61,518 nucleotides of DNA from Paramecium tetraurelia (lineage: Eukaryota). Positions 5,461-61,518 of this stretch are shown one piece after another (the stretch's first letter is position 1; the number at the start of each line of letters is the position of its first letter). The notes beneath the pieces were generated by a model that did not search any database, was not told the origin of the DNA, and saw only the letters and a list, made by a program, of their open reading frames with translations. Position numbers and translations under genes: made by a program. The stretch is from assembly GCA_000165425.1 (NCBI GenBank), contig CT868096.1, positions 888,601 to 950,118 on the forward strand, given 5' to 3'.

Positions 5461-6072
5461 TCAAAATGTTCTTTTAACCATGATATTATAGAAATCTTCT
5501 CTAGTGATCTCCCTTCCATTTGAAGCTGCTCTCTCTAGCATCTCTGCTAACTCTTCTGCTGTCATTGTCTCACCCAATTCTTTAGAAACCTAATACAATT
5601 TCAATATGCAATCATTACTCTCTTCAAGTTATTCAAATTAATGGAATTGCTTCCATCATCATCAAACAAATCAAATATTTTATTTATCCCATCCCTATTT
5701 TCTCTGTTTCCCAATTTTGATGTGATGGCATCCAAAAATTAGTCAAAATCAATGTCAGTTCTATGTCTAAACTCATACTGCATACCCTTCATTCTCCAAC
5801 TCAGCGATCATATTGAAAATAGTTGGGTTTTTTTAATCAAATCCCAAACTTTGCATAGCTGCTTTCAATTCTCTTGGATCCACTCTTCCTGTGCCTTCTG
5901 TATCAAACAAATTGAATGCTTCTCTTATTTCATCAATCTCGTCATCAGTCAATCCAGGTCTTCACATTTCAAACATCATACATTACCTTTCCTGTGGTTT
6001 GCGTACATTTCCTTATTTTTAGGGTTATTACTTTTGAGTTACAGGTGCTTGAGCCTATTGCTTACCTCTCAT
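5461..6072 (-). CDS. Centrin (EF-hand), ICL1e-like subfamily
   Basis: [41 protein letters not shown]...[61 protein letters not shown]; three tiny introns. Confidence 0.95.
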
Positions 6073-6132
6073 ATCTTTATTTTAAATATAAAATATATAT
6101 ATATGTATATAATTTTATGGGCAATCTCTTCA

Positions 6133-7311
6133 ATGGATATTCTAAATAAATAAATTAATAAAATGATTGATGAAACTTTATAACCAATATAAATTAAAAA
6201 TTGGACTCAGGGTTTTCAAACTCAACTAAGAACATCCACCAAAAGAACCCTGAGCAGATTGAAATCAATTGAGAGCAACACCATTTCACATGACCCACCT
6301 TCAGATTTGTCAACTAAATTCAAAACAAACCAAAAAACAATCAAAATATCTGATAGATGCATTCACAGTTAGTATGCCAGCAGAAAAATATCGTTTAAAC
6401 AAAAACAACCCACTCAGACCATCTTTCAACAGCCATTATGCAAAGCCCCTCTGTATATGCAATTGATTCCCTTTTTTAAAGTTTCAGCCCAAAGTTGGGC
6501 TATATTCAACGGGAATACTGGAGAATATATCACTGGATATAATTAAAATAAATGCAGATAAATAGCTTCGATTACCAAAATTGTCACTTGTATTGTAAGT
6601 TTAAGGTTAGCAAAAGAATTAAATTTGAACATAGATCGAAAACGCTTTTTTGTTCCAGATTAAGTTAATTAATTAAACTAAATAGGCATAAAAAATATCT
6701 GGAACTTCTGCAGGGTTATTGAAAGGAGACTCTATCTTTTTAAGAGACCTCCTTTATGGATTGATGCTACCATCAGGTAATGATGCTGCTGTCACACTTT
6801 CTTACAATTTCTAATTATACTCTTTAGAAAACGATCACTTCTTAAAAGAAATGAATCGATTTGTCCAAGCCTTAGGATTATCCAATACACAGTTTAGTAA
6901 TGTTCATGGTAACCCATACATCTATATTCAAAAGGACTTTGCAACGAAAACAATTTCTCCACAGCTTATGATGTGGGTAAATTTACATACGAGAGTTTGT
7001 AAAATGAATAATTCTAAAAAATTGTAAGAACCTAATCCTATTTTTGCGAAACTCCAAATCAATTACAAAACACCTCCAGAGAATTGTATTGGGAGAACAC
7101 TAACAAACTATTACAATAAGGATTCAAAGGAGTCAAGACAGGCATCACAAAAGAAGCGGGGCCTTCAGTTGTTGAATATTTCTAGGACTCAACTAATTCC
7201 TATATAATTGTTCTATTGAATTGCAGTTCAAGTGAAAATAGATGGACAGATGCATTAAGACTATTGTAATGGATTTAGAAACAGGATACTTTGATTAAAT
7301 AATTTATATGA
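6133..7311 (+). CDS. D-alanyl-D-alanine carboxypeptidase-like (peptidase S11, low-MW penicillin-binding protein fold)
   Basis: SxxK (IASITK, 6568-6579), SxN (LMLPSGNDAA, 6773-6781), FSNVHGL..STAYDV, NTNKLL and KTG (GVKTGIT, 7135-7143); two tiny introns; start at 6133 or 6163. Confidence 0.9.
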
Positions 7312-9894: not shown

Positions 9895-11760
9895 TCAATT
9901 TATCTTAATCAACTTCATTTGTATCAATTGAGCCTTTTCCTACTCACTAACTACAAATGGAGAGCCATTTTCATCCAATAAGCATAATCCCATATCACAA
10001 TCGATCAAATGTTTCTCAGAATCATACGTACATGTCAAAATTCTGTCATTTTTGCCTAGATAAAGCAGTCCTATCAAAATTAATTCGGTTATAATATACT
10101 TCTTTTTATTGCCTTAGTCAAAGCATTCATCAAAGGTAATGGTGCTGATTTTCCTCTGCTTTTGCAAGAGACTTAGGCACTGATATCCTCACTTAAGATT
10201 TTAATATTATTCTATATTTAGGATTTCTTAAATGGGTTTCTTGGTGGACTTTGGAATTCTTCAATTTAAGCATTCTTTTTTGTTTTGCTGAAACCACAAG
10301 TCTCATTAATTTCAAAACTATCATTTGAATCCAGTAATGAATTTTCATTAAAATCAGCAAAATCATCCAAACTAATTTCATTTTTCTTTTTGACAATACT
10401 TATTTACTTTTTTGATTTCTATTTTCCTATTGCAACTGCTGTAGAAGTAGAAAAGAAACTATTTTATTTAACTTAAGGAGACAATTGTAGAGTCAATTAA
10501 GAGTTTGTATTTTTTAATTTAGTAATTTCAGATTAGAATTATGAAACTAAGAACTATTGTTAAGTCAACTATTTATTAAGTTCTTGTTTTTCCTTTTCAA
10601 TTTACTTGTTCTTCTACTTTAATTATGTTATAGTTTCAACAGATTATTGTTGCAATTACTTAAATTTATTTGTCAAATTGGTGAAGTGTTAACTCAGTTA
10701 TTTGCTCTCTTGTTTATTGCTATTATTCTCCTAATCTCGTTCATTTATAGTATCATACATGTGTTACAATTTTTAATTGACTTATTGTGTTAAATGCATT
10801 AACGTGTTTTGTATTTAATTTTTGATTTGTTGGAGTTCATCGCTTTTTTCGTTATTAATTTTATTTAGTAATTGATGAGCCTATTACAATTGCAATTAGT
10901 ATTAGTTTTATAATGAAGTAATTTAAACTTAAATAGTCTATTCTACTTTCTATCTGTCAGCCTTAGAATTCAGCTTAGAATTTAGATTCTCAATCTCTTG
11001 TTTGAAGTGTTATTCATCCTCATTCAATCTTAAGGATATATTGGAAGATAGATTTTTAACTAAGTGTTCACTCTATTTAGTCTTCTATTCAAAATTATCT
11101 TACAATTCCTTAAACTGTTCATTTAGATTATTTTACAGATTAGAGACTTTCCTATCAATTTCCAACATAAACTGTTAAGTGTAATCATTTTAAGAGATAT
11201 TCAAATCAATATTAGTTAACTTATATCTGATATCTTCCTAAAACTTCCTGAATTCTACATTAAATCTTTCTTGCAATTATTAATACTAATGAACTTTCTC
11301 TGATAGTTGTGTTTGCAATTATTAAATTTATTCATTTTGTTGTTTAATGATAGCTGACTGATTCGTATCATCTTGTTATGCTAAATTCAATTGGGCTTAA
11401 GATTGAACCTTGCTGAGTTCCTGAATTAAGGATGTCTTGTTCTGTTGTTCAGTTTTCAAAGGCACACACTATTAATATTATTACTACTATGGATAATAAG
11501 CAACAGTCTCTTAAAGGGGTTTTCTAATTGGTGGATTCGAACCTCTAAATTACAATAAGTTGAGTGAATTACCTTTACTGAGGGTATTGGACGTATTGTA
11601 AAGGTTGGTAAGGTAATTTTTATTCTTATGAGACGCATCTCATTATTTGTCTTGGTTCCATCGTTTGCTAAGTGGAAGAAGGTCTTAATTGACGTTACTC
11701 GATAGGCTATTGGTATACTGCGTTACCAAAGGCTCTTACAGGTATGCGCGAGGGCTTCAT
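9895..11760 (-). CDS. Coiled-coil protein of unknown function
   Basis: ATG 11760 (MKPSRIPVRAFG...), Gln-rich coiled coil, C-terminal LIDCDMGLCLLDENGSPFVV, TGA 9895-9897. Confidence 0.75.
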
Positions 11761-11795
11761 ATGTAAATTTGTTTTAACGATTAAATAATAATTAA

Positions 11796-14286
11796 ATGAA
11801 ATTCGCTGTATTCTTATTAAATCATATTATACCAGAATGGGCATTAATGTATTTGAATTACAAGGCAGTAAAAGCGTATCTATCAACCTCAGGAGCACTC
11901 AAAGACTTCTTATTGTATGCCAAAAAAACAAAAACTCCTTAGGAGTACAAGGAAATAAAGAAAATTGTTATGGAAAAAACATATATAATTTCCAAAATAA
12001 CCGTAGATTAGAAGGAATTTAATAAAAAGTTTACTTTAGAGTTGATAAAGGTCAGATCCTTTGTGAATGCAAAATATAATGATTTAAAGGGAAAAACTTA
12101 TAAATTGCAATTATAAATTTTGTCAATGAATAGATATCAAAGGTAACTAGAGAGAAGCAAGAAGCGATCATTAATCAGATCAAACTCTTAAGTCTCTGAA
12201 GAGTTAACTGAATAATTAACTAACCAATAAATCAAGATCCGAGAGTCTGATTTTAATCAAAAAAGTAAGAAATTGAAAGAATTATGTTTTCAATTATATA
12301 ATGAAGGGGTTAATTTTGAAAAGTACTTATCAATAAATCAAGAAGCAATTCGTAAACTCATTAAGAAATAGAATAAGAAATATATAAAGCTTAATTAGGA
12401 GTAAATTAATATAGATGAATGCAAGAAATTGGTATCAGAAATAAATTTTGATTCAAGATAAAATAAAGTGAAACAATTGCTATTTCAAGTAGAGAAATAC
12501 CTTTTAAAACACTTCTATTAAGCTAAATAAAAGATTTGCAAAGAATAACTACGTAAATACCAATTTTAGAATGGCAAAAACAACAAAGCTTGGTTTTAGT
12601 TTGGCTTATTCACTGGGTTTTCCTTAATGTTAATGTCTTTCATAATATTCCTAGCAACTCAAAAATAGTTAGACATTTTAACCAATACTCTTATATATGA
12701 ATCATTCCCTATATACAGAGGGGCCTTATTGTTTATCTTGTATTATTGGTCCTTAACTATAGTTATTCACCTATGGAATTTATCGAAGATCAATTATAAA
12801 TTATATTTTAGCTTTAATCATCATTTCTCAACAATCAACGAATAATTAAAACGAGTGATGACTTTGACCTCAATCTTTTTGTTGGTTAGCTTGTTTTATT
12901 TATGCGATGTTTCTAAATTGGGTGTCATATTTTCGAATCTTAAAGGAGAAGAGTATTTCCCTTTGGTAATCTGGGCATCTCTTTTGGCGACAGTTGCATT
13001 CCCTTCAAAAATCTTTATCAATGGAAAAGGTAGGATATGGCTTTATCGTAATTTATGGCAATCCATAAATCCTAAACTGATAGATTAGCGTCATTTTTTC
13101 ATAATCAGTCAATTTACTTCTTTAATTATCCCCTTTACTGACTTAACATATACGATATGTGAATATTCGAAAGGAGTAAATTATTGATTAATTATACATA
13201 GATCAAGAATCAAGAAGAGAATGACAACGATTAATATGATGAATGCTTCTTCATTTCAAGATATTTCACTTTAGCATTAGTGCTATTTCCATACTTCATT
13301 CTAACAATATAAATTTTATTCCTAACCTAAAAATAATAGAACATTAAACTGTACTCCATAGAATTCATACGAAATATATTATCGATTGCTCTGATAATTT
13401 TTGCCACTTTGTCGTATTAGGAACCTAACTTTTTCTATTACTGGTTAGGAATGGCAGTAGCTATTGGCTTTCTAAATATAATTTTTGCTATTAAGAAGTG
13501 GAACTATTTGGATATAAAAATAAAGAGGAAAAAACGATCGATCTCTTATAAATAAAAATTAGTATTACTATACATACCCTTTGGAATTATTTAACCAGTG
13601 TCCATATCATCTTCTATCTTTGGATGCTTGGATAAGAATGAATAGCACAGTCTTCTTATTTTATACATTGGAATTGCAGAATTGATAAGAAGTATTAATT
13701 AGAAGCAATTGGTTTTTAGGAATGATAATTAACTATTATACTGTTGATGCTGAACACTTTAGAAATAAACTGAAGTATTAGACAGTTGGCGAATACGAGT
13801 TTCCATTTGAAGAATGTTGCACAAAGATACAAAAATACTAGTTATTGTAAGTACTCTGTAAATCATATAAGATAATACGAATCCGATGATAGTGACAATG
13901 ATGAGAAGGAATTCTAGGGAGTTAGCAAAGAAAAAAGTGGCGAAGATCCTGTTATCCCTGCTCAAAATGAAATAAGAAGTAGAGCGGATATTGGACTGTT
14001 CATCTAGGGCAAGTCCACTTTTAACCAATTAAACAATTCTGAGGCCCCATCCTAAGGAAATTAGTTGAAGATTTCCGAATTGATAGTTAAGGATTCGGAA
14101 AAGGTTTTGGGGGATAGTTTTATCAATTACGACATCAATAATTTTAAACCAGATGAATTAAATTCATTAATTAATTGCTAATAAATATCGGAGAGTGATT
14201 TGCAGAGTTTGCATATTAATAATAAGAACTCTAAGAAGGAGATTAGTAAGTTGTATGAAGAGTTTGGCATAAAAATTAAATAATGA
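11796..14286 (+). CDS. SPX-EXS domain protein (XPR1/PHO1/Syg1-like)
   Basis: MKFAVFLLNHIIPEWALMYLNYKAVK (SPX start), NQEAIRKLIKKQNKK (lysine cluster), multiple TM segments, KINYKLYF, EXS-like end AELIRRMIINYYTVDAEHFRN. Confidence 0.9.
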
Positions 14287-31521: not shown

Positions 31522-33130
31522 ATGAACAGACAAGAAATTATGAATATGAAACCAGAAAAGAAGATCTCTAATTATGGTTTCAGTCTAAAGGCAATTTTGG
31601 GTAAAGGTTCTTATGGAACAGTCTACTTCGGAAGAGACATGACCAACTGTATATAATACTCTAATTATAGAACTTCCAGTAGCTCTTAAAGTGATTGATC
31701 ATTCTAAAACACAAAACTACACCTAGTTATATTCATCTCTCCAAAAAGAAATAGAAATAATGAAGAAGTTTAAGCATCCTAACATTGTTGAATTATATGA
31801 GGTATACTCTACAACAAATAACACTTACCTGGTCTAAGAATATTGCAATGGTCCTGATTTAAAATAGTATTTATCAGAAAATAAGATTTTGGAAGAAAAT
31901 CAAGCCATCAAGATGATAAAGTAGATAGCCAATGGACTAAAAGAAATAGTGAGCAGTAATTTTATTCATCGAGATCTTAAACCAGCCAATATCTTACTAC
32001 ATGATGGTTAATGCAAAATAGTAGATTTTGGGTTCTCGAGACCCTTGCCCTCAGAGTGCGTAATGGAATCTCTAGTAGGTACTCCTCTCTACATGGCACC
32101 TCAAATCCTAACCAAATAGCAATACACCTCGAAATGTGATGTGTGGTCCTTGGGACTCATATTCTATGAAATGCTATTTGGCACTCTACCATGGATGGCC
32201 ACCAACTATATGGAGTTGATCTACAGAATTAATAATTGCAAATTGACCTTCCCAAAGAATGCCAAAATCTCAAAAGAGTCCCTCAGCTTTATTCAAGGAT
32301 GTTTACATAAGGATGAAATCTAAAGGTTCAGCTGGAATGAAGTCTTTCTACACCCTTTAATCAAACCTTAAATGAAAATTCCCATTGATCCAGTATTTAA
32401 TGAAATCTATAGTCCCAAATTTTCAACTCATCGATAAAACCATTCCACTGATAAGTCTGCTCTTCCAACTCTTAGAGAAAGAAGCTGTTCTGGAAAGAAT
32501 CCACAAAATAAACAACTTGAATACAAAAGTGAAATAAAAATAGAGTAAAAATAAGAATTACCTCCTGCCAGTTCAAGTCAATAATCCACAGAAGGAGAAG
32601 AAAACACTAAAGTGGGGAAGTACTATCTTCCTAAATAATAAGATAAACTAAGAAGGACAAGATCATAATTCGAGAATATTAAACCTAATTAAACTGAAAT
32701 AAATCCTAAAAGATAGATCTAATAACCTTTGCCATCAAATGGCAATCTAATCAAATAGGCATTTCCAAGTAAAAAACGAAACCTTTTCGATTTATTTAAA
32801 AAAAATAATGTTTGCAAATCGAAATCAAATTCTGAAGTAATTATTTAATTGCTCGATCTAATTGCATCATTAGAAAAGGAAGTAAAAAATTAAGATATCG
32901 ATTTGGAAGCCTTCCTTAGTAAAGAAAGAACTGCTATTACAAATGGCCACTAAAATCAAGCTATAAGAATTAAAATCGCTTAATAATATCTTAGTAAGCT
33001 TGAAGGCCGGAAGAAAAAAAAATTAGAAACCTTCATTACTTTATTACAGAAGGATCTAGAGACTGAAGAAAGCACTTTTAACTAACCAATATAAAATAAA
33101 GTAGTATCACCATTATAGTTTTAACCTTGA
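31522..33130 (+). CDS. Ser/Thr protein kinase, ULK-like
   Basis: [41 protein letters not shown] 33128-33130. Confidence 0.93.
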
Positions 33131-36549: not shown

Positions 36550-39500
36550 ATGTCTGATAATTAATTTAAATTCAAATATTATCTCAACTTCATGGATATT
36601 TATTAACTATTAAGTTTTGATGGATTCAACAACACCTTGGAGATCATTCTCAACAAATTGGCCTGTTAGAAGTTGCAATAGATTCAAAACAATCTAAATA
36701 TTATTTGCATTATTGGATCTCAAAAGTCAGGCAAAAGTTGGTTATTGAATAAGTTGTTCATGCAGGGTTAAGGTTTTCAATCTAGCACCAAAGTAACAAT
36801 CATAATAAACTCAAGGGATTCTATTTTACCTATGATGGTTAATTGATTATCGATACAGAGGGTTTGGGTTGCGGCGATCAAAGAAAAGACATCTAAATCA
36901 TCTTACTTGCATCTCTATTATCAAGTGTAGTAATCTATTGTGGTAAACAAGAATCATATTTATTCCTTAGGTTATTCAGTTGAAGATTTCGAACTCATGA
37001 TTAATCTTGAAGATTATGAGGATTTTCTACCTCCTTTTATTTGGGTTTTGAGAGATATACAAAACAAGGATGCACTCCAACCTAAAGAACTACTTGAAAG
37101 ATAGTTTAAATCATAAAATAGAGTGAAGAAACACCTACTTAAGCTTTTCTCAGATTGTGTTACTATTCCATCATCAAGTGAAAGTATAGAGTTCATAGAT
37201 TCCATGGCTTTGTTAAGGAGAAAAGTGTTAAATTATGCGAAACCCAAGAAAATCTATTAGAACATTTATTTGAATGGTCCGCTTTTGGTCGAGATGATTT
37301 AAATGGTAGTTACCAAATTCAATAGCAATCAACCTGTTGATTTACGACAAGTAACTGAAACAATTGTAGACAGGCAATCTACAGTGTTGTTAAATGAAGC
37401 ATTTAAAAAATATGAATAATCAATTACATAACTCAAATTGCCAACATGTTCATTTGAAGAATTAAAGAACCACCATAAGGATTCAGAACTCAAAGCTTTG
37501 GAGTATTTGAAATCTAAAATCAACGACAAAGATTTAAATGATGATTTACATCAAATGTGTAAAGAAACATTCAAAGAGATCTGTAAACGCAATGAATAAG
37601 AAGCAACCAATTTATGCAATTAATTTATTAATTAAGAATTTTAAACCTTGCAAAAACGATTATCTGAATATAGAAGTATCTTAGAATTTGAGAGAGACAT
37701 CAAATTATTCTATTAATTTTTATTGGAACATGGCCCAAAAACTGTTTTAAAGCAACAAGTGTATTAAGAATTCTATAATAAAATGATGACAGAAGGTACA
37801 AACATGTTCATTAAACAATAAAATTAACAACAATAACAACAACAATAACAACCATTATAAATAAAAAATGAAAATATCAGCACAGAAAAGGATAAAACAA
37901 TTAATGAATTGATATGTAAAGTTAAAGAACAAGAAAATAAAGTTTATTCATAACAATCATAAATTAAATTATTAGAGGAATAGCTATTTTCATCAGATAA
38001 ATAATTAGAGATATTATAAACTGAATTAATTAAGTAAAAGGAACTTCATCAATAGCAATTTAAATAATTTGAGAGAAATCTTTACCTAAAAGAATCTGAA
38101 TTCAATAAGATGAAAGCACTCAACGAATAAAAGATACAACATCTAACAAAACAATTAGAACAGAGTTAAAGAAAAGAAACATAAATGGATTCTTCATTTC
38201 TCTCGACGAAATCAGAGTATACTATTTAAATTAGAGATGTTTAATCGAAATATGAGTAAATGATCACTTAATTGCAAGAAAGACTATTAGTATAAACTGA
38301 TAAAACCTAGTAACTCCAAGATCAATTGAATAATCTAGAGTAATAAAATACTTAAGCTTAATTTAAATTACAAAGTAAGGACAGTAAAATTTATGAATAT
38401 TAATAATAAATCTAATTATTGAAGAATTCGGTAGTTTAATTGCCATAGATTGATAATTTAAATTATGAAGAAAACGAAAAATAAATAGTAAGGTTGAAAG
38501 AAATTATTGAATCTTAAGAAACACAATTGAAAGAGAAGACATCCTAATTGATACAATTAAAATCTAGTTTGGAAAGAGAATAAGCATTGATTGCTCAGGA
38601 GAAATAGTTCTTAGAAATATAACTCAAGGACCTCTCTGAACAATTGAAGCTAGAGAAGAAGAATCATGAATAAACTTTAGGTTTATTTGAAAGCTAAAAC
38701 GATGTGAATAAAAGTTAAGTATTCTCGAAACAATATATGGAAATGAAGGATATGCATTTGAACGAAATGAAATAATTAGAACAAGAATTTGAAATCTAAA
38801 GAAGAAAAATGTAATAATAGATTGAGTATTTGAATTCAGAATTAAATAAAACTGAGAGCTAATTATTATATTAATAAAATGATTTTACTAGAGAATTATA
38901 ATAAACAAAAACTTAGATTCTCAATTATGAGGATAACATTTAAAGATTGAATAGAGAATTTATGTTATTAGAATAGCAAAAGACTAGAATTTAAAGAGAA
39001 TTGGAAGAGAAATTGATTTTGAAAACGAAGAATCAACAACAAGAAATCGAAGAATTAAAAAGATAAAATTTGAATGAGTATAGATTGTTATAGAATAAAA
39101 ATGAAGAATAAATTTCATAGTTGAGATGTATGTATGAATTAGAGAGATAAAAAATTGAGTAAAAATTTATGGAAGATAGAAAGACTATGGAAGAAAAGTA
39201 TAATCAAATGGTTGAGGAGTTGGAAAGTCAATTTGACAATAATTAAGATGAGGAGATTAAAAAATTATAGAAAAAGTTAAAATAAAATGATTTGTAAATG
39301 CAACAATTATCCTAGCATTGGTAAAATGAAAACGATTTAAAATAAAAATAGATTTTAAGTCTAGAGTAGGTGAACAATTCTTTGAAAATATCTATTTAAC
39401 AATTTTAGGATGAATAATAGAATCTATAAAAGTAATTACAAGACTTGCATCAAATCAATTAAATTAAGGAAGAGGAACTAAACACTTTAAAATAATAGGG

Positions 39501-40925
39501 ATAATATGATTCATTGAATAATAATAAATAAGATTAAATAGAAAAGATTAAATAAAATAATTCTCTAGAAAAATAGAAACTCACTGAGTAAATCAATGAA
39601 TTAAAAAAATAACTAGAAGATGCATAAGATGAAAATATTAAAATGAAAGTTGAATATGAAAAGCAGTTGGCTTTAATAACCTAAGAAAATGAATTCAATT
39701 CACACAAAGTAGAATAACTATAAACTCAATTATAAAACTATCAACAAAAAAACTTTACATAGTTAATTAAAATTGAAAGCAATGTTGCTTAATTAACTCT
39801 TGAAACTGACCTTAAAGAATAGCAATAGAAGTATGAAAAGTTAAGACAATAATATAAAGAATAAGAAATAAACAATAATAAAATAGTAGTTGACTTATAA
39901 CAATAAGTTGAATAATTAAAAACATAATTATAAGAGGAATAAAATAATTAACAATAGAAAAACGTAAACCTTCCGACCCCTTAAAATATTGTGTCATCGA
40001 ACACTTAAGTAATTAACTAATTGAAGCAATAAAATGAAAAATTGTAAAGTGAACTGTAGGAATTTAAATCCTTACATGAACGAGATACCTTACTTTGGGA
40101 AGGTAAATTCAAATTCTTGTAGTAATAAAAGGATTAATCAAAATAAGATTTACAAGAGGCCATGAAAAAGTTTGAATTCACTATTAATCATCTCTAAAAA
40201 GCCAGATAATAAGATTTAGAGGAAGAGAGTAACTCTATCTCTGAAATGTTAGTAACTTTAGAAAAGAAGTATTAGTTGTAAGTTTTAGATCTTACGGAGC
40301 ATCATTAAGCAATTGTTAATGAATATGCTATGAAGATTGAATAGTTACAAAAAGAAATAACATTAAACAATATGTCAAATTAAAATTATCATAAGGGTGA
40401 TTATAGTGATATCTCTTCACTCTACGAAAATCAAATTGAATAAATAAAATTGTAATATGAAACCAAAATTGAAGAGTTATACTTAAATCATACTGAAGAG
40501 AGGTAGATTTGGAGAGCCAAGCTGAGTGAAGCTGAAGAAAAATTAAAGGAAGCTGAAATCAGAAGATCTAATATGGTGTTTGAGCATGAGAAAGAAAGGG
40601 CAAAATGGAATATTGAGAAGGATGAATTGAAATATCAGAAAAGTGATTTGCAAGAATAATGTTAGAATTTAGAATAACAAAAGAATAAGTCTGATAAAAA
40701 GAATAAGAAGGTTGGTACTATAAGAACAAGATTAAGTCCGAATAAATCTCCTGGTAGTTGTTTATTAATATTATAGGAACATTTTCTAATGCTTCTAAAT
40801 TAGGACAGTCCTTTGATACCTTCTAATAAGCGAGTATGGAACTACCAGAAGAAAACAAATCGATTCATTTGAATCCTGGGGAATCATTCGAAGCCTATTA
40901 TTTAGCATAAAAAAAGTTTGATTGA
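36550..40925 (+). CDS. Guanylate-binding-protein-like GTPase with very long coiled-coil tail
   Basis: G1 GSQKSGKS, G2 STKG, G3 IDTEGLG, LLSSVVIY, G4 FIWVLRD, LNGPLL; then >1000 aa of Gln/Glu/Lys-rich coiled coil. Confidence 0.9.
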
Positions 40926-42365: not shown

Positions 42366-45300
42366 ATGGAGTAATTGCAGGAAGGAGATTACGTAACAAT
42401 ATTGAAAGATCCTATTAAAAATGAAAAAGGATATATCAGATATTTAGGGGAATTGGAAGGTAGACCAGGCACATTTTATGGAATCCATTTGGATGTAATT
42501 TGAATTAATTAAACACCAGAATAAAGTTGGGTCTCATAATGGTACATTGTAAGGGAAGGAATACTTTACTTGTCCTGAAGGTCATGGCCTATTCATCACA
42601 GGGAATCATTTAAAAAAGACAACTATGGTCACAAGAGATCCAAATAAGTATAATTATTAGTGATATTTCAGAAAATCTACAAAAGTAACAAAAGATGAAC
42701 CTAAGCCACAAAAGTTAAAGACGAGTGCTAGTTCAGCTGCAGTTGTTTAAAAAGCATAGCCTCAATAACAAAGTTAATATGGAAGCAACCAAACTACAAA
42801 GTAAACCACTCTGAAAAGAAATGAATCCAAGAAAGAAACAGTAGTGAAACGACTTGTTGAAGAATAAATTGAAGAGAGACTGTCCACTTTAGAAGCAGAA
42901 GAAGTCCAAGAAGTATGAAATTGCGAATATGATATTTTAGCCACAACAACTAATTAAGTAATAATCAGAACCTGAGCCTTAGTTTTTAGATCATTAACAA
43001 GAATTAGAAAGTGTTAGATAATAATATCAAGCTTTAAAAATTGTTGCAAATGATTACAAGTTGGAAAATAAATCATTAAAAAAGAAAGTAGAATAATTAG
43101 AATAAGAATTAACTGAGAATTTGGAAGATTTGGATTCATATGAAAAATTAATAATGGAATGTGAATAATTAAAATCTGATAAAGACATTATGACTTTAAA
43201 ATTGCAGGAATTTGAGGCAGCAAATTAATCATTATAATAATAAGTAAGTTAATTGCAATTTGAAAAAGAATTAGCAGATCTGGAAATTGAAGAAGCATTG
43301 GTCACTTGTGGAGCCAATCTTTAAGTAGGCAATCAAGATTCTAGTGAGGTTGTGCTTAAAAATGCTCAATTACAAAAGGCTCTGGCTTAATTAAAATAAG
43401 AATATGATGAATACAAACAATAAAAAATAACCGAAATTTAATAATACTAAATTAGATTAGAGGCCATTCCATCATTAAATGAAAAGGCTATGAGATGTGC
43501 TAAATTGGAAAGTTAAGTGAAGAAGTTGACTGAAGAAAATTAAGAACTGTGCCAAAGAGTTGATGAAAGTTAAGCTTTGCAAGAAATGATTGAGAAAATG
43601 ACAGAAACTTTAATGAAGAAGGATGATCTTATTGAAGAATTAAGAAATTAAATTAAAACAATTAATGAAGAGAAGAAATTGGATTAAGAATTGATATCAA
43701 CTTTATTGGATGAAAGCAATTCATTGGAAAAATCATTAAATGATATGCAATTTAAACTAGATTAAGCTAATGCTTAGATTAATAACAATGCAAATGACTT
43801 ATAAGAGAAGGATTTATAAATACAAAGACTTAAAGTAAAGGTAGCTTAATTGAATAAATAAGTTGACCAATAAAGGCTAGAGGAGGATAATACTCAAAAT
43901 GAGCATCCAAAAAAGACATTCTTAGATGAAATCAATATTAAGAATTAAGAATTGATATCATAATAAAGAGATACTTACAAAAAGTACATGAAAGTAGCAT
44001 TAAACAATATTGAAATAAGAAATCAAATAGCATTAAAGGGAATAATCATTTATAAATCATTACCATAAGATTATTGCACAAAACTAAAATTCAATCTATT
44101 AGAACCCGTGATTTTAGTAAGAAAATTAAGCGAGAAATCATTGCTAGTGGCTGATGAATTTTTATAATAATTAGAAAATTAGAGTGATAAATTCATAAAA
44201 GAGGAATTATAAGATTTAGGATTTTGGATGTTAAATGCTCATAAATCTCTTTATTAATTAAGTGATCTGTGTAATATATTCACTACATACCTATAAAATT
44301 AGACAGACAGAGAATCTTTAGAGAAAGTTGCTAGAAATGGAATTTTATTGAATTAATTCAAAATTGCTGATACCTTGGTTGATATGATAATCTAAAGTGT
44401 GCAAAATGAAAAAATCAGTACATAGCTATCCTTATCAGAATTGTAATTTGCAATTTAAAGAATTAACGACGATCTTAGCAATCTTGAAATTTAAGAAGGT
44501 GCAGTAATTGAATCTCTCTTGAATCAAATAATATTTAAATATAGCTATTCAATCTTTAATTTCAAAGTCATCATTAACTAATCAACTGCTACAACTCTAT
44601 AGCAGATAACTGTTGATTAGTTGATTGATACATTGATTTAAAGGTGTAAGGAGTTATCAAAATAATTACGTTATGGAAGATAATGTTGGGGAGGATACTT
44701 TAATAGAAAGAATGAGAAATTCTTAGAATTAATAAATTACTTATAACAATTATTGCAATAGGATTTGAATAAGCTAGAGTTAGATCAGTATTAATAGTAT
44801 ATTTCCTGTTAAGGAGAATCTGTTTCATAGCCATACAGAGATAGGTGTGTATCTATTGTTCATTTGTTGAATTAAATAAATCAACAATTTGAAGAGTAAA
44901 ATATTAATGAAGAATTTTTATCAAACAAACCAACCTTGCATTCATATGCATAAACATCTCTTTGGGCATAATGGTAGAAAGAATTAAAGTCTTAATTGTC
45001 TGATATTTCATATACTATTGAATCTGAAAAAAGATTGAAGGATGATTTGCAAAAATTGTAGTAGGAGAAAACTCAAATTTACTCTGATTGTGTGGCATTG
45101 CGTAAAAACAAGGAAGCATTAGAGAATAGAGTGGTTGATTTACAAATTAAGGCTGATAGAGTATAAGTTCTTGAGAATGAAAAACAAAGGCATTTAGAGA
45201 AGATTAAAGGATTTAACGAAGCTTCAGAATTGACAAGGAAAGAGATTGATAATTTAGAAAATAAATTGAAAGAGAGCGAAGATATTAGGAAGTAACTAGA

Positions 45301-45739
45301 AGAACAAATTAGTTTATACCAATAATAATAACCAAAGAACTCTTTTCTTGATTAACTTTAAGGTAGAAATTTTAGAAAGAGTGGAACGTTGTTGATCTAA
45401 TCATCCAACAATTTAGATTAGGAGAGCACTTTTAATCCATTTTAAGAATTAACTATGAATAAAGGAATTGAGGCTGTGTTATTGAAGGAGAATCAACAAC
45501 TAAAGTTATACAAGTTGAGAGATGAAATACTCTCAATAACATCATCTAATGAAAAACCTTAGATTGAAGAAAAATTGTTATAAATAAGAAAATTAAAAAT
45601 GAAATAATTAAAAAGTATGGCTTTGAATGAAAAGTTTGATGCTAGAAACTAAGCAGCAAAATTCTATGTGAAATAAAATGGAATGAAACTTACAAATACA
45701 GTCTTGATGGATACTTTGTAGGCTATTATAGCAGTTTGA
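42366..45739 (+). CDS. DCTN1: CAP-Gly coiled-coil protein, dynactin p150Glued-like
   Basis: CAP-Gly GYIRYLG...[31 protein letters not shown]; p150-like KNAQLQKALAQLK and ELCQRVDESQALQEMIEKMTE segments. Confidence 0.8.
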
Positions 45740-59420: not shown

Positions 59421-60195
59421 AACCAATATTTCATCTTTTCTTAAGTATGAACTGGTGGGATATATAATTTGAATTTATGTAGATTAACATATATTGTTTT
59501 AAATTTGACAGAAATCTAAGTTCTTTTAGTTTTAAAGAATCTGGGGCACTAATTGTCGTACGAGATACATTTAAAAACGTATAATTATAAACTTCTTGAT
59601 GACCTAAACTTCTGCTTGCAAAGTTTTAATTCATAAGTATTACAATTTTCTTCAGCTATTTTATTAAAGTAAAATATTCTCATCTGCTTTTAACATTTAG
59701 AAGAAGAAAAGTAAACAAGAAAAATCTAAAATTAAAAAAAATTCCACTAAAATTCATCAAATAAATGCTTCAATTTTTTTCCAATTAATTTATTGCTAGT
59801 AATTCTTGGTAATATAATCTATTTCCGTTATGTAATATTATTATAATTAAATTTAACTCAAATGAAAATAACAGATATGATATTTATACACATTTAGTAT
59901 GGGAAACAAATACAAAGATTCTAAAAAGAATACAATTTACAGCAGGAAGACAGAAAAGATGTAGATTATTAATTCGTGTAAATTAATATGGATAACCGAA
60001 AGACATTAATTTAATAAAATGTATTTTTGTTTTGTAATTTACAAAATTCACATTTAGATTAAGTAAACTTTTGAAATAATCTTTATTTTTTCCGTTGCTC
60101 AAATACAAAAAAAAAAAGTAAATAGATATTCAGAGTTTGATTGAGGTTGTTTAAATTAGAAGATAAAATATTTGATGTTTCAATATGAAAATACT

Positions 60196-61467
60196 TCATA
60201 ACTTCAATAGTTAAGTTCTAATAGATGCATTTTGATTTAATCCAAGTTCCAATGCAGCCAAATAAAAGTATTTAGCTTCTGATTTTCTTCGTAATTCAAA
60301 TAATGAATCAGCTAAAATTAAATTACAGTTTTATTTACCTTTAAGTTTAAATCCAAGAGCATAAATTTCTATATTTAATGCTTAATCAAAATTTGAGATA
60401 GCATCAATATATTTCTATTATGAGTGTAAGATGACCCCTAAATAAAAAGAGTAATGAACCTTTGTTTTCAAATGATTTACGAGCCTAACAATTAATAGAA
60501 ATAGATTTATTGTAACATTCAAGTACTTCTTCATATTGATTCAAATTTTGTAATGCCAATCCTAAATATTAGTATTTAACAAAAGACCCTTGCTATGCCA
60601 TGCAGAATCATATTATGGATTTTTCGAAATAGCTTCATTATAACATTCAATTGCTTCTTGGGATTAATTCTAAGTGTCTAATGCACGCCCTAATTGTTAA
60701 TAATTAATATTAATTACCCTTGTTATACCATGCAGAATCGTTTTTTGGATTTATAAAAAGAGCTTGATTGTAACAATTAATTGCTTCTTAATATTGATTT
60801 AATTTTTATAATGCAGATCCTAAATATTGATAGAGAACAATTATATACCTTTGTTATTCCAGGCTAAATCAAATTTTGGATTAACAAAAAGGGCCTGATT
60901 GTAACATTCAATGGCTTCTTGATATTGTTTTAATCTTTGTATTATCAACCCTAAATTATAATATTTAAACCATTGGTTACCTTTATTATTCCAGGCAGAA
61001 AATCTTTTTGGATTAATGGAAAGAGCTTAATTGTAACAATTAATTGCTTCTTGATGTTGATTTAAATTTTGTAATGCCAAACCTAAATATTAATCTTTAA
61101 CAAAAAATACCCTTTCTAAACCAAGCAGAATCATGTTATGGATTTTTCGAAATAACTTCATTATAACATTCAATTGCTTCTTGGGATTAATTCTAAGTGT
61201 CTAATGCACGGCCTAAGTGTTAGTAATTAATACTCATTACCCTTTTAATACCATGCAGAATCGTTTTTTGGATTAATAGAAAGAGCTTGATTGTAACAAT
61301 TAATTGCTTCTTAATATTGATTTAATTTTTATAATGCAGATCCTAAATATTGATAGAGAACAATTATATACCTTTGTTATTCCAGGCTAAATCAAATTTT
61401 GGATTAATAAAAAGGGCCTGATTGTAACATTCAATAGCTTCTTGATATTGTTTTAAACTTTGTAGTA
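60196..61467 (-). CDS. TPR-repeat protein, 5'-truncated in this window; one TPR per exon
   Basis: Repeats such as GSALQKLNQYQEAINCYNQALSINPKNDSAWYQK; nine phase-1 introns, each directly after the AAR Lys codon plus G; ends ...RTQLLKL* at 60196. Confidence 0.9.
60540..61467. repeat. Higher-order tandem duplication, period ~523 bp (4 TPR exons + 4 introns)
   Basis: atgcagatcctaaatattgatagagaacaattatatacctttgttattccaggctaaatcaaattttggattaa occurs at 60811 and 61334, including an identical 29-nt intron. Confidence 0.92.
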
Positions 61468-61518
61468 TACAATTCAGAAAAGTCTTTCAGTACCTGACTT
61501 CAGTAATCACAGGTCCGA

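Follow-up and report, generated by a model that had tools for sequence, protein, structure and literature searches.

In the ciliate Tetrahymena, tens of thousands of leucine-rich repeat (LRR) exons measure exactly 90 bp and have phase 2 introns between them, and these arrays have been ascribed to clonal expansion and recombination (Xiong et al, 2019; PMC6564038). The brown alga Ectocarpus offers a second case, with NB-ARC-TPR genes in which each 42-aa exon encodes one tetratricopeptide repeat (TPR) plus a linker and in which exons have been shuffled, and with LRR-ROCO genes that likewise carry one repeat per exon (Zambounis et al, 2012; PMC3341825). In Paramecium itself, genes with TPR motifs form a large family dense in internal eliminated sequences (IESs), with periodic TPR coding exons, as in PTET.51.1.G1500001, and those exons carry germline IESs at their 5' end (Vitali et al, 2019; PMC6771405); multi-copy IESs in TPR and WD40 repeats have also been reported (Arnaiz et al, 2012; PMC3464196). 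Here, we analyzed a stretch of 61,518 nt from Paramecium tetraurelia (contig CT868096.1, positions 888,601 to 950,118; hereafter the window), at one end of which a series of short TPR exons and tiny introns occupies 60196–61468 on the minus strand. This locus is probably the 3' part of a macronuclear Paramecium TPR-family gene whose array grew by tandem copying of exon and intron together. It is an ordinary member of its family, and its exon architecture has been reported before, in ciliates and in brown algae.

The window is AT-rich (GC 0.22–0.33 in 2-kb steps), and the reverse complement of 60196–61518 is open only when TAA and TAG are taken as sense codons. Under the ciliate code (TAA and TAG for Gln, TGA for stop), the minus strand at 60196–61468 encodes a run of 34-residue TPR units of the type G.AL..L..YQEAI.CYN.A...NP....AW..K. 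Introns were sought with the pattern AAR-G followed by GT...TAG-G, which returned eight tiny introns, and a ninth was located before the last exon. All nine, 22–30 nt in length, start with GT and end with TAG, and each lies in phase 1 directly behind a Lys codon plus G (AAR+G). The codon they split is Gly in eight cases, with the completing base pair after the intron, and Ala in the ninth. Seven consecutive internal exons are 102 nt long and the eighth is 99 nt; all eight are symmetric (phase 1-1), with lengths divisible by three. A TGA stop at 60198–60196 closes the last exon, and inside the window the gene comprises at least nine TPR-type units and a conserved C-terminal tail. The original prediction, made from the letters of the window alone, had described nine phase 1 introns at one position after AAR+G, seven internal exons of 102 nt and one of 99 nt, all of which the reading frame and the splice sites bear out; the peptide variants it named beside the junction (AWNNK, AWYQK, AWFRK and AWHSK; GSAL, GRAL, GLAL and GLII) each occur in the translation. 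Its placement of the gene body was also correct, but not that of the 5' edge, since TPR homology begins only at 61468.

Sequencing evidence consisted of short assembled contigs only. At least half of the sampled words were contained in 18 of the 24 runs, and 20 runs, from 16 studies, contained some part of the sequence. Four runs are referred to individually: X1 is a DNA run, X20 is on record as RNA-Seq, and the contigs of X17 and X18 are RNA-like. Contig cover is lacking at 61358–61518 in X1, at 60710–61518 in X17 and over most of the gene in X20, and such gaps are not evidence of absence. The features of the locus, in the direction of the gene, are as follows:

61469 to 61518, minus strand: anomalous window end, non-TPR (GC 0.40, in-frame TGA at 61489–61487; record 21 of X18 diverges here)
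61372 to 61468, minus strand: exon 0 (TPR unit 0), the part supported by homology (TPR_1 E = 3e-8; 93/97 identical to exon 4); at the full 102 nt it would extend to 61473
61343 to 61371, minus strand: intron 1, 29 nt, phase 1, identical to intron 5 (intron pattern; spliced junction in X18 and X20 contigs)
61241 to 61342, minus strand: exon 1, 102 nt (TPR unit 1; reading frame, Pfam)
61213 to 61240, minus strand: intron 2, 28 nt, phase 1 (intron pattern)
61111 to 61212, minus strand: exon 2, 102 nt (TPR unit 2; reading frame, Pfam), with an IES-like insertion site in X1 at TA 61202–61203
61083 to 61110, minus strand: intron 3, 28 nt, phase 1 (intron pattern)
60981 to 61082, minus strand: exon 3, 102 nt (TPR unit 3; reading frame, Pfam)
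60951 to 60980, minus strand: intron 4, 30 nt, phase 1, of 3n length and free of in-frame TGA (intron pattern)
60849 to 60950, minus strand: exon 4, 102 nt (TPR unit 4, twin of unit 0; reading frame, twin alignment)
60820 to 60848, minus strand: intron 5, 29 nt, phase 1, identical to intron 1 (intron pattern, twin alignment)
60718 to 60819, minus strand: exon 5, 102 nt (TPR unit 5, twin of unit 1, 98/102; reading frame, twin alignment)
60690 to 60717, minus strand: intron 6, 28 nt, phase 1 (intron pattern)
60588 to 60689, minus strand: exon 6, 102 nt (TPR unit 6, twin of unit 2, 95/102), with an IES-like insertion site in X1 at TA 60679–60680
60562 to 60587, minus strand: intron 7, 26 nt, phase 1, 5' site GTC in the window and GTT in X1 and X17 (retained in record 14 of X17)
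60460 to 60561, minus strand: exon 7, 102 nt, diverged TPR unit (TPR_1 E = 3.7e-5)
60438 to 60459, minus strand: intron 8, 22 nt, phase 1, 5' site GTT (intron pattern; retained in record 14 of X17)
60339 to 60437, minus strand: exon 8, 99 nt, degenerate TPR-like unit (TPR_1 E = 0.058)
60312 to 60338, minus strand: intron 9, 27 nt, phase 1, of 3n length and free of in-frame TGA (spliced paralog junctions here in X17 and X18)
60196 to 60311, minus strand: last exon (exon 9), family-specific C-terminal tail (ADSLFEL...) and TGA stop (match to the tail of the paralog P0054; paralog model helical, pLDDT > 90)
60148 to 60195, minus strand: probable 3' untranslated region (contig ends in X17 and X18, a weak hint)
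60581 to 61403, minus strand: higher-order duplication, 60581–60880 against 61104–61403, 95% identical at a spacing of 523 nt

The translation matched the TPR_1, TPR_2 and TPR_11 families of Pfam. When the nine pieces were submitted separately, seven matched TPR_1 at E ≤ 5.2e-5; exon 8 gave a weak match (13.7 bits) and the last exon had none. Exons 0, 1 and 5 exceeded the TPR_1 cut-off of 27.8 bits (PF00515) on their own, with 33.6, 36.5 and 32.9 bits, respectively; exons 2, 6 and 7 stayed below it at 23–26 bits each, and a two-exon piece reached 61.3 bits. Across the seven full units, the TPR signature was present as W4 in six, G8 in all seven, A20 in six, Y24 in seven, A27 in five and P32 in six, with positions numbered from the Pfam alignment. 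In that alignment residue 2 of an exon falls on position 10 of the 34-position TPR_1 profile, so the intron splits the Gly8 codon within helix A, and each repeat takes positions 1–7 from the upstream exon and 8–34 from the downstream one. The equation of one exon with one TPR in the original prediction thus holds as a period, but not as a structural repeat, because the intron interrupts helix A. Judged from its sequence, the protein would form a TPR solenoid with a concave face to which other proteins bind.

The regularity of the array follows from the tandem copying of a 130-nt unit of exon plus intron. Tandem Repeats Finder reported a 130-nt period with 7.4 copies and 71% matches, together with a 261-nt period, and a repeat search recovered eight copies at a spacing of 128–132 nt. 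The same search returned a 300-nt pair (60581–60880 and 61104–61403) that is 95% identical and lies 523 nt apart, a distance of four units. Exons 0 and 4, 1 and 5, and 2 and 6 are accordingly twins, identical at 93/97, 98/102 and 95/102 positions, and the introns that follow them agree at 29/29, 24/28 and 23/28. Exons were somewhat better kept than introns (286/301 against 76/85). The fourth pair, units 3 and 7, is identical at only 70/102 positions and is much older than the other three. From the 130-nt repeats and the near-identical twin blocks, the array grew head to tail, most recently as a block of four units. The regularity exceeds chance, and the proper null for it is tandem duplication rather than independent intron gain, the nine introns being in all likelihood copies of one intron and not nine separate events.

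As a mechanism, we propose that an ancestral unit of about 130 bp, consisting of one 102-nt exon and one tiny intron placed in the Gly8 codon of the TPR, would have been copied head to tail and later recopied as a four-unit block of 523 bp. Intron position and symmetric phase would then be inherited with the unit and not re-acquired. Because the unit is 3 × 34 codons flanked on both sides by phase 1 introns, duplications and deletions in register keep the frame, and unit duplications can survive because the frame is preserved. The original prediction that these exons can be duplicated or deleted in frame is thus sound in its arithmetic, and the four-unit block is a duplication of this kind that did occur.

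The array of seven consecutive exons of 102 nt with all nine introns in phase 1 goes well past a uniform exon array of at least three consecutive exons of one length and one phase. It has in common with the Tetrahymena LRR genes exons of one exact length and of whole codons, a single intron phase, a split codon at the junction, and growth by clonal expansion of exon plus intron units (PMC6564038), and the parallel with 90-nt LRR exons drawn in the original prediction is therefore apt in both arithmetic and growth mode. The two differ in the repeat (TPR, not LRR), in exon length (102 nt, not 90 bp), in phase (1, not 2) and in the introns, which are 22–30 nt here; furthermore, the Tetrahymena class comprises tens of thousands of exons, whereas a single gene was examined here. 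The Ectocarpus exons encode 42 aa, lie in phase 0 and stand behind an NB-ARC domain (PMC3341825), as against 34 aa and phase 1 in this gene; the precomputed Pfam lists of its Paramecium paralogs contain TPR-type families only, without NB-ARC. The IES-dense TPR genes of P. tetraurelia are the nearest in kind, being of the same genus and having periodic TPR coding exons (PMC6771405). The available text of Vitali et al (2019) and Arnaiz et al (2012) deals with IES density and retention rather than with exon length or intron phase, and our literature search found no explicit description of 102-nt phase 1 TPR exons in Paramecium, although the supplements of Vitali et al (2019) and Xiong et al (2019), which lay outside the search, may list some. 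With the Paramecium genes and the Ectocarpus TPR exons in print, calling the system under-described was an overstatement.

To place the gene among its relatives, exons 3 and 4 were joined into a protein query by reading through the in-frame 30-nt intron between them, and candidates were picked by shared words. Among 106 candidates, 53 proteins matched, of which seven bear Paramecium names (tetraurelia, octaurelia, primaurelia and pentaurelia). The annotated paralogs are P0054, P0002 and P0019 from P. tetraurelia, P0001 and P0035 from P. octaurelia, P0029 from P. primaurelia and P0036 from P. pentaurelia. All seven have the TPR subtype of this gene (AWNNKG...YQEAIECY...INP), and all except P0001 also have its C-terminal tail. 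A query made from the last two exons matched the partial P. tetraurelia protein P0054 with 58% identity over the 79 aa of the query (E = 1.3e-15), and the family tail, (K)ADSLFEL...QL.KL behind degenerate terminal TPRs, aligned in the relatives and here; the gene belongs to this family by its tail. None of the paralogs is the same gene, since their best identity to the query is 55–58%; their unit numbers also differ.

Full-length members begin with a Cys/His-rich motif and a coiled coil of about 150 residues, followed by the TPR array, degenerate TPRs and the tail. Between three and six TPR units were detected in them (two to six when partial models are counted), with alignment gaps at the unit borders, and P. 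octaurelia P0001 contains three identical units (34/34). The models of P0029, P0019 and P0054 carry short in-frame insertions at unit borders, either after the border glycine or before the ADSLFEL tail, and that of P0002 reads one exon out of frame. Both kinds of irregularity may well reflect unrecognized introns at the same codon. In the AlphaFold model of P0035, the TPRs and the tail have a predicted local distance difference test score (pLDDT) above 90, the tail forming an extra helix pair and a capping helix; the N-terminal 54 residues score below 50. By analogy with these paralogs, the N-terminal part of the present gene would be expected to have the coiled-coil architecture.

The N-terminal 201 aa of P0002 matched no Pfam family above its cut-off. 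A TRIM-like N-terminus of B-box plus coiled coil was considered for the paralogs; zf-B_box (PF00643) gave no match at E ≤ 10, and model confidence is low there. In the Atlas, structural neighbors of the paralog N-terminus included TRIM/B-box-coiled-coil clusters at TM 0.39–0.47, which we take as a lead only, and ciliate clusters with WD40 at TM 0.51 (the single neighbor above 0.5) and PHR at TM 0.37; the ciliate clusters hint that a common N-terminal module may be fused to different repeat domains in ciliates. At the other end of the gene, the tail-coding stretch 60224–60331 had a summed word depth of about 1500 in X1, compared with about 125–150 alongside, and assorted contigs had loose ends at 60247, 60280 and 60313–60317. 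Since many contigs of other loci match 60224–60331, several paralogs have near-identical tail exons.

Comparison of 39 units from nine proteins placed seven of eight units of this gene nearest to another unit of the same gene, and in the primaurelia/pentaurelia ortholog pair units corresponded by position, with 31–32 of 34 residues identical. Exchange of exons between genes, which the original prediction had proposed, was not seen in this very small sample. The unit relationships give a picture of what is probably intragenic tandem growth on a stable scaffold.

Contigs confirm the splicing of some of the junctions. X18 and X20 each yielded one 50-nt contig that aligns up to 61344 and continues with nine letters matching the end of the upstream exon, and an end of this kind is absent from those recorded for the DNA run X1; intron 1, or its twin intron 5, is therefore spliced as predicted in RNA-like contigs. 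Record 21 of X18 (291 nt) contains exon 0 without a mismatch, joined without introns and at the 102-nt period to two more TPR exons, and neither of its two joints was recorded for X1. As these two exons lie upstream of the window end, the gene continues past the window. At the site of intron 9, paralog junctions are spliced in X17 and X18. In addition, one paralog has an intron in X1 DNA that X20 shows spliced at that position. X17 and X18 contigs end at 60148 and 60156, and the X1 DNA goes on to 59900, a weak hint of a 3' end some 40–48 nt past the stop. Retention of intron 4 or 9 would lengthen the protein by 10 or 9 residues and keep the frame; introns of 3n length without a stop are reportedly depleted in Paramecium.

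The window end and two sites within the array bring IESs into consideration. Sequence 61469–61518 has a GC content of 0.40, compared with 0.26 for the gene, and lacks TPR homology. Record 21 of X18 leaves the window sequence at 61468 and proceeds into a normal exon start, and the break falls at a TA that lies just within exon 0, a few bases from its 5' end. Either an assembly chimera or the retention of germline DNA (an IES) may account for these last 50 nt. A search for telomere repeats near the window end gave a single one-mismatch match, at 36863, no more than expected by chance. Separately, contigs of the DNA run X1 carry a 28-nt insertion plus TA at TA 60679–60680, at the homologous TA 61202–61203, or at both. 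Within the twin exons 6 and 2, these TAs are 9–10 nt from the 5' end, and the contigs may fit both sites. The insertion looks like a short IES in germline DNA or in DNA incompletely excised. IES ends have the consensus TAYAGYNR, which both the window end and the 28-nt insertion match partially by eye; this was not used in the analysis. The position of the insertion inside exon 5' ends fits the IES placement of Vitali et al (2019) and the report of Arnaiz et al (2012), and the germline unit may consist of exon, intron and IES.

Published hypervariable positions of the TPR are 2, 5, 9, 12, 13, 33 and 34, and ligand binding by HOP runs through positions 2, 5, 6, 9, 12 and 13 (Magliery and Regan, 2005; PMC1261162). 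In the seven full units of this gene, entropy was highest at positions 34, 5, 13, 6 and 9, followed by 17, 26 and 30, and averaged 1.61 bits over the published hypervariable set compared with 0.63 bits elsewhere (Mann-Whitney p = 0.0009). Distance to the splice junction did not correlate with entropy in these units (rho = −0.15, p = 0.41), and 36 family units gave rho = −0.26 (p = 0.14). The variation beside the junction is the generic pattern of the TPR concave face, and it appears there because the junction falls between positions 5–6 and 9. The original prediction had placed the variable residues around the junction and near the ligand groove; they are indeed the usual concave-face positions, but variability does not follow distance to the junction.

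Across the three twin pairs, we counted 11 nonsynonymous and 3 synonymous changes, corresponding to a ratio of nonsynonymous to synonymous rates (dN/dS) of 0.87 (Fisher p = 0.74), and five of the nine changed residues lie at positions 5, 6, 13 and 34. A ratio obtained from 14 changes is uninformative, neither showing nor excluding positive selection.

Several observations weigh against an intact, tandemly grown family member. The last 50 nt of the window look foreign and contain an in-frame TGA, and the gene is incomplete in the window, so that its N-terminal architecture is assumed from paralogs. The dN/dS between the twin blocks fails to show purifying selection. Among the 106 candidates and 84 more, all picked by words, no annotated protein is identical to the gene, which is weak evidence. 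Record 14 of X17 (323 nt, 60340–60662) is unspliced across introns 7 and 8, the two whose 5' sites are GTC and GTT instead of GTA; possible reasons are that X17 is DNA or that the two are spliced poorly. GTA is the usual 5' splice site in Paramecium. X1 and X17 differ from the window by one base in intron 7 (60585) and one in intron 8 (60449), both G>A on the plus strand. Finally, the contigs lie in a repeat and may be chimeric, and contigs this short cannot confirm how many units the window has or in what order they stand.

A wider interpretation joins the exon array to the IES observations. It would make the gene one of a genome-wide class of TPR exons of exactly 102 nt and phase 1-1 in the Paramecium aurelia species, with a germline unit of exon, intron of about 28 nt and IES of about 30 bp. 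The concave face would be diversified, partly somatically in the course of development, by in-register duplication and recombination of units, by conditional IES retention, and by retention of stop-less 3n introns that are invisible to nonsense-mediated decay. On present evidence, we consider this doubtful.

The original prediction had read the locus as part of a recognition system that diversifies rapidly, with 102-nt phase 1-1 exons as cassettes that are duplicated, swapped or skipped to vary the TPR binding surface; moves of this kind have been proposed for the Tetrahymena 90-bp LRR arrays and the Ectocarpus NB-ARC-TPR genes. The symmetric exons do permit such moves, and the recent block duplication within the gene, the three identical units of P. 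octaurelia P0001, the spread of three to six detected units among full-length relatives and the want of a close ortholog among the 106 and 84 candidates all speak for this reading. So do the 55 X1 contigs over 1.6 kb, 25 of them at 95–99% identity, which point to many near-identical paralogous fragments, and the published parallels in Tetrahymena LRR, Ectocarpus NB-ARC-TPR and IES-dense Paramecium TPR genes. Record 21 of X18 even contains a unit with a body like that of unit 5 and an end like that of unit 6, but this mosaic comes from a single contig of depth 4.3 within a repeat. A dN/dS near 1 between twins, with the changed residues placed as described above, would suit diversification, yet it is indistinguishable from neutrality, and the variability itself is the generic TPR pattern. 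Moreover, the 39 units gave no sign of exchange between genes, with most nearest neighbors in the same gene and an ortholog pair that is positional; exon skipping left no evidence, the window holds no cluster of TPR genes, and the precomputed Pfam lists of the paralogs include no signaling domain. A recognition system of this kind is therefore unlikely, a possibility that stands unsupported; both a recognition function for the protein and an adaptive value of its modularity would go beyond the anatomy and duplication history described here.

Lastly, a decaying gene copy, a pseudogene cut short on its 5' side where a scaffold ends, or an assembly in which several paralogous arrays were collapsed or fused, with a neat model that would reflect recent duplication only, is very improbable. 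In favor of such a reading, the window ends within the gene at 50 unrelated nt with a TGA, the best DNA runs contain only 0.82–0.84 of the sampled words, the 5' sites of introns 7 and 8 are not GTA and one X17 contig retains both introns, dN/dS is 0.87, and open frames come cheap in a genome with TGA as its sole stop. Against it, the nine GT..TAG pairs and the frame are intact up to a tail 58% identical to that of a paralog, independent X1 DNA contigs match 59900–61309 in pieces of up to 383 nt with 0–2 differences, RNA-like contigs join a mismatch-free exon 0 to upstream TPR exons, so that the gene is not truncated, and twin exons are better kept than their introns.

The remainder of the window contains no other TPR gene: a hidden Markov model built from the seven 102-nt exons and run against the six-frame translation gave a best E of 0.45 outside 60407–61486, and Pfam analysis of 20 long open reading frames returned kinase, GBP_C, EXS and Peptidase_S11 matches, without TPR. 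Long Gln/Glu/Lys-rich, coiled-coil-like frames lie at 36847–40872 and 42848–45739 on the plus strand and at 10074–11639 and 1014–2858 on the minus strand, and one of them, of 1341 codons, matches GBP_C (E = 1.4e-10). Further frames match Pkinase (31643–33127), EXS (11568–13184) and, weakly, Peptidase_S11 (5524–6780). For the kinase frame, identity is 92% to a protein of P. primaurelia, 85% to one of P. pentaurelia and 82% to one of P. sonneborni, which places the window in a Paramecium of the aurelia complex.

Taken on the evidence of the window alone, the gene is one ordinary member of its family and changes no open question. It is nevertheless a clean example of how a repeat protein grows, with exon and intron copied together and with phase and exon length fixed by descent. 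If 102-nt phase 1 exons prove common in Paramecium TPR genes, they would be a second, independent ciliate case beside the Tetrahymena LRR genes and would link their modular exons with the IES density already known in these genes. The genome-wide class, if it exists, would stand to TPRs as the Tetrahymena 90-bp arrays stand to LRRs, with DNA elimination as a further layer.

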